DNA of 18,062 bases from a virus. The stretch is taken from the UHGV virus genome UHGV-0041835; one strand, 5' to 3'. Positions 50 to 13,052 of this stretch are shown piece after piece (positions within the stretch are counted from its first letter, which is position 1; each line of letters begins with the position of its first letter). The notes beneath the pieces were generated by a model. That model did not search any database. It was not told the DNA's origin and saw only the letters and a list, made by a program, of their open reading frames with translations. The position numbers and the translations under genes were made by a program.

Positions 50-511
50 CTATCTGCACTGCTCATTAATATACTTCTGGGTTCCTTCCAGTTGTTTTTG
101 CATAGTGATCAGCCTCTCTCTGAGGGTGAAATAATCCCGTTCAGCGGTGTCTGCCAGTCGGGGGGAGGCTGCATTATCCACGCCGGAGGCGGTGGTGGCT
201 TCACGCACTGACTGACAGACTGCTTTGATGTGCAACCGACGACGACCAGCGGCAACATCATCACGCAGAGCATCATTTTCAGCTTTCGCATCAGCTAACT
301 CCTTCGTGTATTTTGCATCGAGCGCAGCAACATCACGCTGACGCATCTGTATGTCAGTAATTACCGCGTTCGCCAGCGTCAGTTCTCTGGCATTTTTGTC
401 GCGCTGGGCTTTGTAGGTAATGGCGTTATCACGGTAATGATTAACAGCCCATGACAGGCAGACGATGATGCAGATAACCAGAGCGGAGATAATCGCGGTT
501 ACTCTGTTCAT
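50..511 (-). CDS. Rz: Spanin, inner-membrane subunit (Rz, i-spanin)
   Basis: Translation from [26 protein letters not shown]... is near-identical to lambda Rz as recalled, with an N-terminal TM segment. The ATG at 511 overlaps the endolysin stop (ATGA); the track ORF extends to a GTG at 523. Confidence 0.9.
109..291 (-). CDS. Rz1: Spanin, outer-membrane lipoprotein subunit (Rz1, o-spanin), embedded in Rz in another frame
   Basis: 60-aa ORF wholly inside Rz. It has a lipobox-like LVVVGC signal and a proline-rich stretch ([13 protein letters not shown]), matching lambda Rz1 as recalled. Confidence 0.85.
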
Positions 512-1005
512 TGCTGACCCCACAAACAGATTTCACGCTCAATCTCACGACGAGTCATGAGACCTTTCCATTGCTTACCGCCAGCATATGTCCAGCGACG
601 TAGCTGATCACATGCGCCTTTGATATCGCCCTGGTTTATTTTGCGAAGAAGCGTCGATGTTCTGAAATTGCCAGCACCCACGTTGTAAACGAATGAGTAA
701 AGAGCGCCGCGCATTGTTTCCGGTATATCGACTTTGATGTACGGGTTAATTTGTCTGGCGACCGTGGCAAGGTCTTTATTCAGGAGGGCTTTGCATTCTG
801 CTTTGGTATACGTTTTACCGAGCATGATGTCTTTTCCTGTATGCCCGTGACATACAGTCCATACACCAACAATATCTTTGTATGGTATGTAGCTGACACC
901 TTCCAGACCATCGTTACCACTTGGGCCAGTGATTAACACTGATGCTATAGCAATTGCTCCGCCACCAATAGCAGCAGCAACGGCTTTTCGTAATGATGGA
1001 GGCAT
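508..1005 (-). CDS. R: SAR (signal-anchor-release) endolysin, lysozyme family, phage 21 R-like
   Basis: 165 aa. N-terminal Gly/Ala-rich weakly hydrophobic segment ([20 protein letters not shown]) typical of a SAR domain, followed by a T4-lysozyme-like catalytic region. Start overlaps the holin stop. Confidence 0.9.
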
Positions 1006-1220
1006 TATTCACCTCTCGCAGCCTTGCGCTTATCTTCTTTAATCTTGAAATAAAGGTTTGTCAGGTACGTCAGCAGGCCAAATACCAGGCTACCCAGCAC
1101 ACCTATTGCCGCCCACTGTGAGGGCGTGACTTTATCGAGCAACTGTAAAAACCAGTACCCGGCACTACCTGCTGAGGTACCATAGGCGACACCCGTTGTT
1201 AACTTATCCATGGATTTCAT
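1005..1220 (-). CDS. S: Pinholin (phage 21 S-like class II holin) with dual-start motif
   Basis: 71 aa beginning MKSMDKL (Met1 and Met4 give a possible antiholin/holin dual start), two predicted TM helices, and a charged C-terminus ([13 protein letters not shown]). Lies immediately upstream of the endolysin. Confidence 0.85.
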
Positions 1221-1345
1221 AACCCCACCTCGCAGACAAAGCGGGTGTAAATTAAGGGGATACTACGTATCGCAATAAAGGCAGAAACGTAACAGATTCG
1301 GAGTCAGTGAATAACTCAGGTATTGGGTTATCAGCTAATATCGAG

Positions 1346-1382
1346 ACTCAAAAAATGGAAAAACCCGCTCGACGGCGGGTTT
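1346..1382 (-). terminator. Candidate intrinsic terminator on the minus strand, upstream of the holin gene
   Basis: 8-bp GC-rich stem AAACCCGC/GCGGGTTT (1361-1382) with a 6-nt loop. On the minus strand it is followed by TTTTTCCATTTTTTGAG. Confidence 0.45.
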
Positions 1383-1808
1383 AAGCTGTGTGACGAAGTA
1401 ACCACTCTTAACAGCATAACCAATTTTTTACGTACGTAAACTACTAAATGATATTTGTGAGAATGCCACCGAGTGTTCAAAACACCACCACAAATGCATA
1501 AGAAAACTTCAACAAATAACCAGTTAATAATTTCCGATGTTATTTTTAGTTTGTTTAAATTAAGCTAAAGAATTATAGAGCACTTATAAATAAGTGCCAT
1601 TAATATAAATTAGCTAATAGATTTATTTTTGTTCAGACAAGAGCCATGAATAGGATTAGATAGAAAAGGTTCAGATAAAAATAGAGATCTACTTCACAAA
1701 TTAAATGAGAAACTAAAACTTACATCTTGAAATAATCACATTGATTAGATGAATATTTATCGCGCAGTGACATCATTTTTTAATAATAGTTCAAAAAAAG
1801 GGCGTACA

Positions 1809-2891
1809 ATGAAAAAATTAACAGTGGCAATTTCTGCTGTAGCTGCATCAGTACTGATGGCGATGTCTGCTCAGGCAGCTGAAATTTATAATAAAGACAG
1901 TAACAAGCTGGATCTATACGGGAAAGTTAATGCCAAGCACTACTTCTCCTCTAATGATGCAGATGATGGTGATACTACTTATGCCCGTCTTGGCTTCAAA
2001 GGTGAAACCCAAATCAACGATCAACTGACTGGTTTCGGTCAGTGGGAATATGAATTCAAAGGCAACCGTGCTGAATCTCAAGGTTCTTCCAAAGACAAAA
2101 CCCGTCTTGCATTTGCAGGCCTGAAATTTGGTGATTACGGCTCAATCGATTACGGCCGTAACTACGGTGTAGCATACGACATCGGTGCGTGGACTGACGT
2201 TCTGCCAGAATTCGGTGGTGATACCTGGACCCAAACAGATGTGTTCATGACTGGTCGCACTACTGGTGTTGCAACTTATCGTAACAACGACTTCTTTGGT
2301 CTGGTCGATGGCCTGAACTTTGCTGCTCAGTATCAGGGTAAAAATGACCGCACTGACGTAACTGAAGCTAACGGTGATGGTTTCGGTTTCTCCACTACTT
2401 ATGAGTATGAAGGATTCGGCGTGGGTGCAACCTATGCTAAATCAGATCGCACTGACGGTCAGGTCGCCTATGGTAAGAGCAAATTCAATGCCTCCGGCAA
2501 AAATGCGGAAGTATGGGCTGCAGGCCTGAAATATGATGCGAACAATATCTATCTGGCTACCACATATTCTGAAACTCAGAATATGACCGTTTTTGGTAAT
2601 AACCATATTGCAAACAAAGCACAAAACTTTGAAGCAGTAGCACAATATCAGTTTGACTTCGGTCTGCGTCCATCTGTTGCTTACCTTCAGTCAAAAGGTA
2701 AAGACCTTGGTGTTCATGGTGACCGAGACTTAGTCAAGTATGTCGATGTCGGTGCTACTTACTACTTTAATAAAAACATGTCCACTTTTGTTGATTACAA
2801 AATCAACTTAATTGACGATAGTAAGTTTACCAAAACAGCTGGTATTGATACCGACGACATCGTCGCTGTAGGTCTGGTTTATCAGTTCTAA
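1809..2891 (+). CDS. nmpC: Outer-membrane general porin (OmpC/OmpF family; prophage NmpC/Lc-like moron)
   Basis: Signal peptide [29 protein letters not shown], a beta-barrel porin sequence and the C-terminal VGLVYQF motif ending in Phe. The real start is the ATG at 1809 with AAGGG upstream; the track ORF begins at an upstream in-frame ATG at 1749. Orientation is opposite to the flanking late genes. Confidence 0.9.
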
Positions 2892-2900
2892 TCTGACTTA

Positions 2901-2942
2901 CGAAAAAGATATGTTGCGGGAGGCTTTGCCTCCGCAACATAT
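2901..2942 (-). terminator. Hairpin terminator (minus-strand sense), candidate tR'-like terminator about 140 nt downstream of Q; may also end the porin transcript
   Basis: Stem ATGTTGCGGGAGGC/GCCTCCGCAACAT with loop TTTG. The minus strand has ATCTTTTTCG right after the stem; the plus strand has no U-run. Confidence 0.5.
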
Positions 2943-3029
2943 AAGTGGAGCCCTCAAGCCACTTCCTTTAGAAGCACTACCTTGCTTCTTACTATATAAA
3001 CCTTCTGTTATATATTACCCTTTATTTTG

Positions 3030-3056
3030 GGGGCGTTTCCACGCCCCATTTTTAAT
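3030..3056 (+). terminator. Intrinsic terminator (plus strand) downstream of the porin gene
   Basis: Stem GGGGCGT/ACGCCCC with loop TTCC, followed by ATTTTTAAT on the plus strand. Confidence 0.5.
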
Positions 3057-3079
3057 AACTTTTAGTAAACAATTGCATA

Positions 3080-3463
3080 TCAATTAGAATTATTAGCAAC
3101 GATATCCATATCTAACCGGATATCTAATGCCATTAACATCCCTTCAATTATGCCCTCAGCCTTCTGTAACCTTTTCCCGATATAACCATCCGAGCAGCAA
3201 TGCTTACTTGCCAGTGACATGAATGTCATACCACATACATAATAATCTACTAATAAATCGTGTAAATCGCTGTTGTTCTTTTTCAGACGGGCCATGCACC
3301 CGCAAATGATCATCGCGTCATCGTCACAACATTGCGGGCGAGATTTTACTTTTGAAGGAATTAATCCCTTAAAACCGGCGGCAATGGACGACCAGGTCAC
3401 ATCTTCATGATTATTAGCCGCCCACGCACCCCAACGCTCAAGAACCATCTGAATATCACGCAT
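3080..3463 (-). CDS. Q: Late-gene antitermination protein Q (21/DLP12 QuuD-like)
   Basis: 127 aa from [22 protein letters not shown]..., with Cys-rich zinc-binding motifs ([23 protein letters not shown]). ATG at 3463 has GGAG 8 nt upstream; the track ORF starts at an upstream TTG. Sits upstream of the late region. Confidence 0.85.
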
Positions 3464-3548
3464 CAACTTACTCCACAAAAATCAGACCAGAACGCCAATT
3501 ACAAGCAAAAATCAACAAAACAGTATTAGTTGATTGTTATCTCTGACT

Positions 3549-3686
3549 TCATACTCCTGTTCCTGTCAGGGTTTTGGCGTAATTCTTCAGTATTCGGTAA
3601 TCGGTCAAAACAGAACCGAGGAAACGATATAAGCGCAGACGCCCCCAGCGGTGGCGAAGAAGTTCTGCCATATTAAACTCAAACAT
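3549..3686 (-). CDS. ylcG: Small conserved lambdoid protein, YlcG-like (45 aa)
   Basis: Not in the ORF track (under 60 aa). Hand translation gives [45 protein letters not shown]. The ATG overlaps the rusA stop (TGATG), and the position between rusA and Q matches DLP12. Confidence 0.55.
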   Translation of the reverse strand: MFEFNMAELLRHRWGRLRLYRFLGSVLTDYRILKNYAKTLTGTGV

Positions 3687-4048
3687 CATTCATTCCCCAT
3701 TTCGGTGATGGTCAGTTCCAGCCTCCCACCTTTGGTAACAGGCATCTTCACAACGCGGTAATCAACGACCTGAGCATCATCCAGCCAGAAACCTGCTTTA
3801 GTGAGTGCGTCAAAAGCGGCTTTTTGCAGATTATCCAGGTCACGGCGACGGCGATCCGGCATGTGGCACTCAATGCGGATTTTCACAGGCATAGCCAGGC
3901 CGATATCCAGCATTGCGTTTTTAATGATTCGGGCGACGTTATCGCGGTATGCCTGCCCCTCTGCGCTGACGTGCGTGCGCCCGCGATTATGGCGGTAATA
4001 GCGATTATTGCTCGGAGGCCAGGGTAATGTGATGCTGTAGGTATTCAC
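3686..4048 (-). CDS. rusA: Holliday-junction resolvase RusA
   Basis: 120 aa, [37 protein letters not shown]..., matching prophage RusA as recalled. The start codon is GTG. Confidence 0.9.
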
Positions 4049-9190: not shown

Positions 9191-9748
9191 TTGGCAAAAA
9201 TAGATGATTATCAGCCAAGCCAAGTAGAAGTTGATAAAGTACTTTATTGTAAAAAAATAGTTAACTTTTCTGGCGTTAAATGGAAACAGAAACCAAGTCG
9301 CTCTGATATGTGGCTACAAGCCCATATCATCCCCTTGGATGAGGATTGTATACCTATACAAGGGCTAAAGTTTGAACTGAAATGGAAACCAGATCAGGAT
9401 TCAGAACCTGATGACCCGATTTCTTACCCTAAAATAAATATTATTGCTTTCTATCATAACAAGAGGGTTTTCGCGGTAGATACCTATCACTTTGACAAAC
9501 ACACGAATAGTTACAAGGTCGATCATCCGAAGTACCAAGATATCATTTACGGTGCTCACTACCATGTATACTATGAAGAAGCTGGATACTATAGTGATAG
9601 AATAGCGTTTCCAATCGAAGATGACATAAACCCAGATGACCTGGTAGGGTATTGGAATTACTTCTGTAAACATCTGAACATAACTTACTCTGGGAGAATA
9701 CCTTTACCGCTTGAAGATGAGTCGGGGCAAATGGGGTTTGGAATATGA
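9191..9748 (+). CDS. Hypothetical protein A (185 aa), first gene of an uncharacterised cassette downstream of cI
   Basis: Open frame beginning at TTG 9191; the only in-frame ATG is 39 codons in. No recognised motif. Acidic and Tyr/His-rich soluble protein with no predicted TM segment. Visibly more AT-rich than flanking phage genes. Its stop overlaps the start of gene B. Confidence 0.6.
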   Translation: MAKIDDYQPSQVEVDKVLYCKKIVNFSGVKWKQKPSRSDMWLQAHIIPLDEDCIPIQGLKFELKWKPDQDSEPDDPISYPKINIIAFYHNKRVFAVDTYHFDKHTNSYKVDHPKYQDIIYGAHYHVYYEEAGYYSDRIAFPIEDDINPDDLVGYWNYFCKHLNITYSGRIPLPLEDESGQMGFGI

Positions 9749-10497
9749 TGTGCTCAACAGTGATCTCACAACTAGGTTTCGAATGCCATCCAATAGGCAA
9801 GACCTTGAGAATTATCAGTCCATTCACTTACTGTGATGATGGAGAGCATGTCGGTGCCTTTATCCGTGAAGTCAATGGTAGGTATTTAGTTAGTGACAGA
9901 TGCGATGCCTTAATGAATATGGAGGCAAGAGGGATCTCGCTTACCAAAAAACGACTTGATGAGATACGACAATTACTGCTTAAAGAAGGCGCAGAACTCA
10001 ATGCTCGAGGAGAAATCATTGCTTGGGCAACAGAAAAGGATGTCGGTGCGATTACATCGAACATAATTAGAGCTGGTATACTCGCATCAACTTTGTCGTT
10101 AGACTGGTATCAGCCAGTTCAAGCTGAAAAGTTTGAAAGTATGGTTATTGATTATCTATATCACACAGAGCTTAGAGACGCACTTTCTCTTCGTGAAAAC
10201 GTATATGGCTTGAGTGGACATCAAATTACCGTCCCTGTAACAATAAAAACCGACATACCTAAATACGTTTTTACATCAAGCGTGAAACACGGAGGAAGCT
10301 GGAATAGTGCTTACTCATTGCTTGGGAAACTAATTGATCTTAAAGCTTCAAGTGAGGAGTATAACAACAGATTTGTTGTTATAGACAGCGAAGCAATTGG
10401 TGATCAAATGCAACAACTCTCCTTACTCTTCCATGAATCAAGCCAAGTTCTACCATTCTCCAAAAGAGAGACTTGGGTTAAGAGACTTGCAGCATAA
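9745..10497 (+). CDS. Hypothetical protein B (250 aa), second gene of the uncharacterised cassette
   Basis: ATG at 9745 or 9748 overlaps the stop of gene A (ATGATG), implying translational coupling. No recognisable family from the sequence. Followed 5 nt later by an intrinsic terminator. Confidence 0.65.
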   Translation: MMCSTVISQLGFECHPIGKTLRIISPFTYCDDGEHVGAFIREVNGRYLVSDRCDALMNMEARGISLTKKRLDEIRQLLLKEGAELNARGEIIAWATEKDVGAITSNIIRAGILASTLSLDWYQPVQAEKFESMVIDYLYHTELRDALSLRENVYGLSGHQITVPVTIKTDIPKYVFTSSVKHGGSWNSAYSLLGKLIDLKASSEEYNNRFVVIDSEAIGDQMQQLSLLFHESSQVLPFSKRETWVKRLAA

Positions 10498-12815: not shown

Positions 12816-12887
12816 GCGCGGCGTTACCGCATACCAATTACGCTTCACTCGAGGCGTTTTTCGTTATGTATAAATAAGGAGCACACC

Positions 12888-13052
12888 ATGCAATATGCCA
12901 TTGCAGGGTGGCCTGTTGCTGGCTGCCCTTCCGAATCTTTACTTGAACGAATCACCCGTAAATTACGTGACGGATGGAAACGCCTTATCGACATACTTAA
13001 TCAGCCAGGAGTCCCAAAAAATGGATCAAACAATTATGGCTATCCAGACTAA
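12888..13052 (+). CDS. cIII: CIII (inhibitor of FtsH-mediated CII degradation)
   Basis: Not a separate track ORF. Hand translation gives [54 protein letters not shown] (54 aa). TAAGGA lies 8 nt upstream of the ATG. Confidence 0.8.
   Translation: MQYAIAGWPVAGCPSESLLERITRKLRDGWKRLIDILNQPGVPKNGSNNYGYPD

Follow-up and report, generated by a model that had tools for sequence, protein, structure and literature searches.

Gene organization of the locus

The window, the whole stretch of 18,062 nucleotides of viral DNA that was analyzed (UHGV virus genome UHGV-0041835), contains a seemingly complete early region from int to Rz, and its porin gene is intact (Table 1). The porin open reading frame (1749-2891, plus strand) likely has its true start at the ATG at 1809, which gives a protein of 360 amino acids with the C-terminal residues YQF. 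In a profile search this protein covered positions 1-337 of the 337 positions of PF00267 (Porin_1) with an E value of 1.9e-151. The gene is flanked on the minus strand by the antiterminator gene Q (3080-3478) and by the S21-type lysis cassette (50-1220). The open reading frame, the Pfam match and the neighbouring genes confirm an earlier note on this DNA, which had described a complete OmpC-family porin gene lying antisense between Q and S-R-Rz.

The porin gene shows 99.8% nucleotide identity to that of phage ev017 and 88.8% to the lc gene of phage PA-2. The porin and PA-2 Lc share 91% amino acid identity, and their differences are grouped in four short stretches that are probably surface loops. 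By sequence, the porin belongs with the Lc/NmpC phage-borne general porins (Porin_1, OmpC/OmpD group). PA-2, DLP12 and ev017 share this layout, in which the porin gene is flanked by Q and S and read from the other strand; of 5426 complete E. coli genomes, 3340 contain the porin locus. The region is identified as the already known Lc/NmpC porin moron, here in a DLP12/PA-2-like lambdoid prophage. It has the features of a moron, namely its own terminator at 3030-3057, an upstream region of 25% GC and absence from 26 otherwise collinear relatives. The terminator, to which the earlier note had only alluded, was located on the plus strand by the terminator scan; it consists of a stem (3030-3047) and a T run to 3057 (-13.8 kcal/mol, z -3.35) and is conserved in PA-2 and DLP12. 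The earlier description of a self-contained porin transcription unit with a role in lysogenic conversion is right and already textbook knowledge as the lc/nmpC arrangement. Publications of 1975-2006 already describe the porin cassette, its role in lysogenic conversion and the IpeX RNA; their discovery value is small.

Table 1. Positions of genes, promoters, hairpins and other elements discussed in the text
Feature	Positions	Strand	Basis or remark
Rz/Rz1	50-523 / 109-291	-	Gene call/Pfam
Lysozyme	508-1005	-	Gene call/Pfam
S21-type (P21-type) holin, dual start MKSM...	1005-1220	-	PF04971, E 2e-35
Holin leader; stem at ~1223-1247 sequesters the Shine-Dalgarno sequence GAGGTGGGG	1221-1345	-	Folds of 19 haplotypes
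Hairpin A and U run, candidate Q-sensitive tR', ~+25 to +57	1346-1382	-	Terminator scan
Start-site element, invariant TAAGAGTGGTTAC	1398-1410	-	Spans the predicted start (~1408-1405) and the start of the qut/pause region
pR' homologue: -35 TTTACG (1440-1435), 16-nt spacer, -10 TATGCT (1418-1413)	1413-1440	-	BLAST to annotated pR'
Porin regulatory region, AT-rich, 25-30% GC	1446-1808	+	PA-2 CRP-site homologue at 1681-1701; chance-level OmpR-like box at 1719-1738
Putative SigmaE-like promoter, TGAACTA N16 TCACT	1766-1793	-	Predicted; start near 1760, toward the lysis genes
Porin gene, Lc/NmpC/OmpD type	1809-2891	+	Full-length Porin_1; signal peptide at 1809-1877
Porin 3' UTR, 166 nt, IpeX-region homologue	2892-3057	+	~95% identical to PA-2 and K-12 DLP12
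Hairpin B and CUUUUUC	2901-2942	-	5' stem-loop of IpeX on the plus strand; possible Q/early-right terminator on the minus strand
Intrinsic terminator of the porin/IpeX transcript, GGGGCGT-TTCC-ACGCCCC and ATTTTTAATA	3030-3057	+	Terminator scan
Antiterminator Q, DLP12 QuuD/933W type, 132 aa	3080-3478	-	PF06530, E 7.7e-54

An IpeX-hairpin scan of genome contigs returned E. coli only, apart from one probable contaminant, a 442-bp contig of a Streptomyces assembly, and it identified no chromosomal non-phage source of the porin cassette. E. coli matches limited to sub-segments were screened for an ancestral porin-less arrangement; neither H54, a laboratory IS5 deletion, nor H50, a porin-upstream remnant beside ybcM, was informative on it.

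The Q protein is 81% identical to that of phage 933W over 121 amino acids. The alignment stops at residue 125, the point at which the 933W Q gene enters its own pR', and the last seven Q codons of the window (3083-3103, IVANNSN) differ from 933W Q. Phage 82 was discarded as a model since its Q protein (X92588) is unrelated, so its pR' and QBE are not transferable to the window. For the holin gene, the record of phage 434B annotates both S71 and S68 products.

Upstream region of the porin gene

The GC content upstream of the porin gene drops to 25% at 1501-1800. Within this region, an OmpR-like box at ~1719-1738 agrees with the ompC C1 box at 14 of 20 positions, and the best matches to OmpR sites reach 14-15 of 20. 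Among 300 dinucleotide shuffles of the AT-rich region, 231 scored equally well or better. The tandem OmpR boxes upstream of the -35 element, scoring above chance, that mark an OmpR-activated promoter are absent from the porin upstream region. The OmpR-box-like elements to which attention had been drawn are therefore a chance-level resemblance. Of the host osmoregulatory control that had been deduced from them, host control itself is real; it is mainly catabolite control, with OmpR acting negatively, because the K-12 promoter PnmpC was reported in a 2024 paper to be activated by Crp and repressed by OmpR, IHF and MprA, and CRP sites are annotated in the PA-2 GenBank record (J02580).

On the minus strand of the same region, the motif TGAACTA N16 TCACT may be read as a SigmaE-like promoter. 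In the published "-121 to +650" fragment of the DLP12 lysis promoter, the forward primer corresponds to 1862-1881, which places the published +1 near 1760. This reporter fragment of the DLP12 lysis operon begins within the nmpC signal-peptide codons and reads toward essD, and the paper names a Q-type antiterminator among the regulators of the operon.

Predicted late promoter module

A putative late promoter module was identified at 1359-1445 on the minus strand. BLAST matched it to the pR', qut and first terminator annotated in 933W and to the pR' annotated in Ss-VASD (E 6e-8 to 1e-9), and it is also homologous to the pR'/qut/first hairpin-terminator module of H-19B. The local alignment score of the module was 73, against a shuffle maximum of 31. 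The window contains no second pR'-like module, and TAAGAGTGGTTAC is present as a single exact copy. The modules of 933W, H-19B and Ss-VASD, which were found independently, have the same sequence at this element; its constancy among 120 viral contigs carrying the module is not independent evidence, because the search pattern demanded it. The 933W record places qut just downstream of the equivalent of TAAGAGTGGTTAC. For Stx phages, dRNA-seq mapped the pR' start and Term-seq a 3' end 258 nt further downstream (Sy et al. 2020, PMC7547250); the start falls 4-7 nt past the aligned -10 element. The -10-like pause position is less convincing, with TACTTC in the window (final T lost) versus TACATT in 933W.

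The pR' homologue agrees with the sigma-70 consensus at 8 of 12 positions, which equals the score of two chance-level candidates just downstream of Q. A consensus promoter scan overlooks the homologue at default stringency and gives a tie with the two Q-side candidates at a looser threshold; for this reason, the choice of a promoter by consensus scan alone was given up.

A relic of the 3' end and stop codon of an ancestral Q gene (AGTTTACGTACGTAA) lies at 1442-1428 on the minus strand and is still joined to the -35 element. Q abuts the module directly in 26 of the 120 contigs. An antisense porin gene intervenes in 93, in the order Q, antisense porin, module, and holin at +204/+220; no other arrangement of Q and module was found among the 120. 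By this comparison of the 26 relatives with the 93, the porin cassette (~1446-3103) is placed between Q and its late promoter. No pR'-like module follows Q directly in the window, where the homologous promoter lies 1.65 kb away at 1440-1413. The absence of a cognate promoter beside Q is positional only and leaves the mechanism unaffected; since Q acts in trans, the distance is no argument against it. The DLP12 Q-nmpC::IS5-S-R-Rz block is also found in phage 434B, where 1.2 kb of IS5 separates Q from S; being a sequenced phage isolate, 434B is presumably viable with it.

The assertion in the earlier note that late transcripts must run about 1.1 kb antisense through the porin gene is not supported, as homology to the 933W, H-19B and Ss-VASD modules puts the promoter at 1440-1413. 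Its fallback, a promoter near 1400-1500, fits this position. The porin is not a late gene, and obligatory antisense late transcription does not apply to it.

Hairpins and the porin 3' UTR

Both minus-strand hairpins with U runs that had been proposed as late terminators are present, hairpin A with its stem at 1361-1382 and hairpin B with its stem at 2909-2942, and the proposed distances (~140 nt from the Q stop codon to hairpin B and ~125 nt from hairpin A to the holin start) hold. The stem of hairpin A (AAACCCGC/GCGGGTTT) encloses a loop of 6 and is followed by TTCCATTTTTT on the minus strand. The hairpin has an energy of ~-12 kcal/mol, was called by the terminator scan and is homologous to the first "possible rho-independent terminator" annotated in 933W. 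Directly 3' of it are the L047 recombination junction and the point at which Stx-type sequences part from porin-type ones. Between the pR' homologue and the holin gene there is no terminator-like element other than hairpin A; the choice of tR' is thus not as undecidable from sequence as had been thought, and hairpin A is the candidate Q-sensitive tR'. The second terminator, which is the site of tR' in Stx phages, is absent from the window.

The porin 3' UTR, which runs from the porin stop codon to the rho-independent terminator as IpeX does, is strongly structured (-53.6 kcal/mol, z -6.4). Its length compares with 167 nt given for IpeX in a review. The IpeX region is ~95% identical to those of DLP12 and PA-2 and has few variable sites among 17 haplotypes. 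According to secondary citations, IpeX of DLP12/PA-2 is a published post-transcriptional repressor of OmpC/OmpF. Within this region lies hairpin B, whose stem has 15 pairs and a single bulge (-21.9 kcal/mol, z = -5.9). On the minus strand, CTTTTTC comes next. Either strand can fold (z -5.9 and -5.1), and the A/T run beside the hairpin does not vary among the 17 haplotypes. The terminator scan missed hairpin B, probably on account of the bulge. The pR' homologue lies 1.5 kb downstream of hairpin B, which is not the pR' terminator and on the minus strand could at most terminate transcripts leaving Q. The 3' UTR haplotypes vary too little for covariation in its two hairpins to be assessed on either strand. 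An Rfam search returned no family in 1150-3150 even at E values up to 5, only chance-level matches, and the sole match in the whole window was the cIII thermoregulator.

Proposed model and alternative readings

The observed gene content, homologies, two architectures and structures are brought together in a model with a porin cassette and a late promoter beyond it, to which a probability of about 0.75 is given as a whole; promoter activity, Q dependence and terminator efficiency are predictions from the sequence. The cassette (~1446-3103) would consist of a CRP-dependent AT-rich region, the porin gene, the 166-nt IpeX 3' UTR and its own terminator, placed between Q and the cognate late promoter and outside the late transcript. 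In the lysogen, it would be transcribed rightward on the plus strand to give a new porin, and the IpeX 3' UTR would lower OmpC/OmpF, a published function that is ascribed here by homology. Upon induction, Q, encoded 1.65 kb away (3478-3080), would work in trans on RNA polymerase that starts at pR' (~1406). The modified polymerase would pass the hairpin and U run at 1382-1346 into S-R-Rz, while the unmodified enzyme would halt there and yield an RNA of ~50 nt. The late transcript would thus reach the holin gene without crossing the porin gene.

Placing pR' right after Q (3079-2950), with tR' at 2909-2942, is highly improbable. The polymerase would then cross 1.1 kb of the porin gene in antisense, as well as the hairpin at 1361-1382, to reach the holin gene. 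The spacing of ~140 nt from the Q stop codon to hairpin B does resemble that of lambda pR'-tR', hairpin B is a strong one with five U residues behind it on the minus strand, and there are weak promoter-like matches (8/12) at 3041-3012 and 3018-2991. However, the segment is unlike the pR' module of this Q family (score 18 versus a shuffle mean of 19), it is the conserved IpeX 3' UTR, the true module homologue lies at 1359-1445, and Q directly abuts the module in the 26 porin-less relatives. In K-12, a strong terminator put between nmpC and quuD caused no detectable change in transcription into nmpC::IS5, which is weak evidence given laboratory conditions in which Q was not induced.

Another reading keeps pR' at 1440-1413 and takes hairpin A as leaky or auxiliary rather than as the operative Q-sensitive terminator; late silence in the lysogen would then be maintained by a weak Q-activated promoter, by Rho termination in the untranslated 186-nt leader or by the stem sequestering the S ribosome-binding site. 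This is considered unlikely. Stx-phage relatives read through the homologous first hairpin at least partly without Q, and their tR' 3' end maps 258 nt from the start (PMC7547250). The stem is broken by a G-to-T change in 32 of 95 porin-type relatives, the viable phage PA-2 included (-6.7 versus -12.0 kcal/mol). The DLP12 lysis genes are described as expressed and physiologically active in uninduced K-12, and the title of Rueggeberg 2013 terms Q "a Q-like transcription factor". Against this, the hairpin and U run of the window form a canonical intrinsic terminator that stays with the promoter as a single unit in divergent contexts, recombination junctions falling just 3' of it, and the terminator scan called no further terminator-like element before S. 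Given the read-through in Stx phages and the broken stem in a third of the relatives, the Q-sensitivity of hairpin A is of modest interest.

A complementary reading, in which hairpin B on the minus strand ends the early-right/Q transcript and the porin RNA ends at 3057, leaving ~150 nt of convergent overlap, is possible but doubtful. In the lysogen, the porin/IpeX transcript would then be a perfect antisense of the 3' end of whatever Q mRNA is made. Each terminator has a U run on one strand only, and neither the hairpin nor the A5/T5 run beside it varies among haplotypes. A bulged stem with five U residues behind it is a modest terminator, though; N-modified polymerase from pR would ignore the hairpin in lytic growth, and covariation showing selection on the minus-strand RNA is absent. 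It is improbable that the 188-bp Q-porin spacer is a two-way RNA device with crossed terminators (3057 and ~2903) and antisense action both ways. Porin/IpeX RNA, abundant in the lysogen and perfectly complementary to the last ~150 nt of any Q transcript, could then silence leaky Q expression and so stabilize lysogeny as an antisense, much as lambda paQ does. A weak minus-strand promoter at 3018-2991 could give an anti-IpeX RNA of ~80 nt ending at 2909-2942, which would release OmpC repression on induction.

The preferred model, with the promoter beyond the porin moron, has annotation value: it puts the late promoter of DLP12/PA-2-type phages, and the Q site, 1.65 kb from Q. This placement is useful for prophage annotation and for predicting Q-controlled genes.

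Comparison with known systems

The PA-2 lc record J02580 (Blasband et al. 1986) has Rz-R-S on one strand and the porin gene on the other, as in the window. It also shares the upstream region with an annotated CRP site, the 3' UTR and the pR'-like module. PA-2 differs from the window in the G-to-T mismatch in hairpin A and in the four short stretches of the porin. The DLP12 (qsr') prophage of K-12 has the same layout (quuD-nmpC::IS5-essD-rrrD-rzpD), the same Q type, ~95% IpeX identity and the same pR'-like module in its S leader, which is 16-17 nt shorter than that of the window. The K-12 nmpC gene is broken by IS5 near its 3' end, whereas the porin gene of the window is intact.

In lambda, the Q antiterminator acts at the constitutive pR', which is followed by a terminator (6S RNA, tR') upstream of S. 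The Q family of the window is a different one (PF06530). The lambda morons bor and lom are autonomous units with their own promoter and terminator and deviant GC content. They lie within or after an operon, whereas the moron of the window separates Q from its promoter.

The Stx phages 933W, H-19B and Sp5 contain a pR'-qut-tR' unit that gives rise to the StxS RNA (Sy et al. 2020, PMC7547250). The -35 element, the start region TAAGAGTGGTTAC, the first hairpin plus its U run and a portion of the spacer have homologues in the window, whose Q protein shares 81% identity with that of the Stx phages. In these phages the promoter overlaps the Q stop codon, whereas that of the window lies 1.65 kb away, past the porin gene. 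The first hairpin of the Stx phages is followed by a second terminator at +258 (the mapped tR') and then by tRNAs and stx, whereas in the window the holin leader follows the first hairpin directly.

Gene organization

The leftmost 4 kb of the window correspond to the end of a lambdoid prophage that carries late control and lysis, with the minus-strand gene order rusA, ylcG-like open reading frame, Q, holin, lysozyme and Rz/Rz1. A full-length Porin_1 gene is placed on the plus strand between Q and the holin gene, as the earlier note had described. The early region is complete in the remainder of the window (from the far end: int, xis, exo, bet, gam, kil, cIII, sieB, N, cI, cro, cII, O, P, ninB, dam and ninX).

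Several other elements were observed. The holin Shine-Dalgarno sequence (GAGGTGGGG), just upstream of the dual-start MKSM codons, is hidden by a conserved stem seen in all 19 folded leader haplotypes. Two overlapping open reading frames (185 and 250 aa) downstream of cI, at the lambda rexAB position, match a PADLOC candidate defence pair (PDC-M24A, E = 4.8e-4; PDC-M24B, E = 4.7e-10), and in Pfam match only DUF6978 (weakly) and DUF1828. The Rfam Lambda_thermo cIII thermoregulator is present at full length (88.5 bits; gathering score 50).

Features of the window discussed in the text
Feature	Position	Strand	Remark
Rz/Rz1	50-523 / 109-291	-	
Lysozyme	508-1005	-	SAR-type
Holin	1005-1220	-	P21-type, dual start
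Holin leader stem	1223-1247	-	
pR'/qut/first-hairpin module	1359-1445	-	
Promoter-proximal hairpin	1361-1382	-	U run to 1346
Distal PA-2 CRP site	1386-1406		
Sigma-70-like site	1572-1600	-	ATGGCA N17 TATAAT
Second PA-2 CRP site	1681-1701		
SigmaE-like site	1766-1793	-	TGAACTA-N16-TCACT
ipeX region	2892-3057		porin stop to terminator end
Hairpin near Q	2909-2942	-	then CUUUUUC
Porin terminator	3030-3057	+	third terminator element of region
Antiterminator Q	3080-3478	-	PF06530
ylcG-like ORF	3549-3689	-	
rusA	3686-4048	-	
Candidate defence pair	9191-10497	+	
cIII thermoregulator	12875-12933	+	

Late promoter

The late promoter is probably (about 0.75) a homologue of the Stx-phage pR' located in the module, with a predicted start at approximately 1406. 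A sensitive BLAST search of phage records with the holin-porin spacer as query aligned window 1359-1443 (minus strand) with approximately 300 Stx phages (78%; E = 1e-9 to 6e-8). In 933W, the aligned stretch carries the annotations 'pR' putative late promoter', 'qut' and 'possible rho-independent terminator'; in Ss-VASD, it is labelled 'putative late promoter PR''. The alignment conserves the -35 (TTTACG), CGTAAAAA within the spacer, the -10 (TATGCT in the window, TATCAT in 933W), the hairpin (AAACCCGC...GCGGGTTTTT) and, surrounding the start, an invariant TAAGAGTGGTTAC. The Stx-phage promoter is more than a prediction because its start has been mapped by dRNA-seq, 258 nt upstream of a Term-seq 3' end (Sy et al., PMC7547250); counted back on the 933W sequence, this start lies 4-7 nt past the aligned -10.

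The earlier note had late transcription running about 1.1 kb antisense through the porin gene, and mentioned a promoter near 1400-1500 only in passing; comparison with relatives favours the latter. The module is present as a single copy in the window, and the segment just downstream of Q did not resemble it (local score 18; shuffle mean 19, maximum 31), whereas the true match scored 73. Q is 81% identical to Q of 933W across residues 5-125 and divergent after. In 933W, the last Q codons extend into the pR' -35 and the stop codon lies within the promoter; the window module retains a relic matching these 3' codons (AGTTTACGTACGTAA). Phage 82 Q was rejected as a relative of the window Q, the proteins being unrelated.

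A fragment of the DLP12 lysis operon, the 'regulatory region, -121 to +650', was cloned in a 2021 paper; the regulators it names for this operon are the Q-type antiterminator, RpoE and Hha. Its forward primer maps to window 1862-1881, in the nmpC signal-peptide codons and directed toward essD, and the numbering of the fragment implies a start near 1760. By our own reading, the sigmaE-like site could start transcripts at about 1760 toward the lysis genes; it overlaps the porin 5' region and fits the '+1' of the published fragment. Such transcripts would need to pass the pR' module and its hairpin. The best sigma-70-like match of the region (10/12), also toward the lysis genes and within the AT-rich porin upstream region, may be due to chance, since shuffled sequences contain more promoter-like sites than the region overall.

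In the 1986 GenBank record of phage PA-2, the more distal of the two 'CRP binding site' annotations corresponds exactly to the initially transcribed (qut) stretch of the pR' homologue. It lies 400 bp from the start of lc, the porin gene, and, being in that stretch, is probably irrelevant to lc. If CRP binds there at all, the effect would be on the late promoter.

Terminator hairpins

Both minus-strand hairpins proposed earlier as tR' are real, and the choice between them, then considered undecidable from sequence, was narrowed by comparison. The hairpin near Q is ruled out because it is upstream of pR', while the promoter-proximal hairpin is a candidate whose uncertain status is one of the two least ordinary residues of the locus. 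Between the predicted start and the holin ATG (1220), no terminator-like element other than the promoter-proximal hairpin occurs, and the odds are slightly better than even that this hairpin is the operative Q-sensitive terminator. The claim is limited on three counts. Without Q, transcription in Stx phages passes the homologous hairpin and continues to a second terminator at +258; the -10-like pause element of the window is weaker than that of 933W; and position 1363 (G, 3' arm) is T in 32 of the 95 porin-type sequences, PA-2 and the related loci L001 and L010 among them. This change creates a C-U mismatch that opens the stem (-12.0 to -6.7 kcal/mol).

The 166-nt segment following the porin stop folds very stably (z = -6.4) and is approximately 95% identical in PA-2 and DLP12. 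It is the ipeX region, reportedly also described in Castillo-Keller et al. 2006. The hairpin near Q is its 5' stem-loop, and on the minus strand could terminate transcripts leaving Q. Speculatively, the crossed convergent terminators, the other least ordinary residue, would give a porin/IpeX RNA that is antisense to Q transcripts at their 3' end. The exact E. coli IpeX hairpin was also detected in a 442-bp contig of a Streptomyces alkaliterrae assembly (NZ_VJYK02000722.1), which E. coli DNA has almost certainly contaminated.

Porin gene and its regulation

The listed porin open reading frame begins at 1749; judging by the signal peptide and by the record of PA-2, the start is at ATG 1809 (360 aa). 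The RefSeq porin of the near-identical phage ev017 begins at the upstream ATG (380 aa), a likely mis-annotation of the start codon. The window porin is 91% identical to Lc, with the differences grouped in four short stretches.

GC content upstream of the porin gene drops to 25%. The OmpR-box-like element suggested there shares 14 of 20 positions with the ompC C1 site, a level that shuffled versions of this AT-rich sequence also reach. The porin is under host control, though of another type than OmpR-activated ompC: a 2024 paper names Crp as the activator of PnmpC and OmpR, IHF and MprA as its repressors. The second PA-2-annotated CRP site also maps to the upstream region.

Comparison with known loci

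The locus is already known, and the earlier note described it correctly. Window 1221-3079 shares 99.8% identity with phage ev017 and with several further sequenced coliphages, 88.8% with the PA-2 lc region (J02580) and 88% with quuD-nmpC::IS5-essD in DLP12, a cryptic prophage of K-12; it has a match in 3340 of the 5426 complete E. coli genomes. Phage 434B has the DLP12 Q-nmpC::IS5-S-R-Rz block, in which IS5 lengthens the distance from Q to S by 1.2 kb. In E. coli RM9513 (locus L008, 2501-2874), an unannotated stretch beside ybcM is 82% identical to window 1480-1849. It covers the porin upstream region and 40 nt from the beginning of the porin gene, the gene itself being absent, and is probably a remnant.

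A pattern scan of viral contigs identified 120 module loci. A 933W-like Q adjoins the module directly in 26, whereas 93 contain Q (93-100% identical to the window Q), antisense porin, module and then holin at +204 or +220; one was uninformative. Since only these two architectures occur among the loci, the porin cassette (approximately 1446-3103) stands in place of the ~60 nt joining Q to pR' in porin-less relatives, and it qualifies as a moron. In a hybrid prophage (L047, IMGVR_UViG_3300014519_000046), Q-porin-module is fused directly 3' of the hairpin to a late region of the kind typical of Stx phages, with a methylase fragment and a 483-aa protein in place of the S21-type holin. Stx-type and porin-type sequences part exactly at this same point, and the promoter-to-hairpin segment behaves as one unit.
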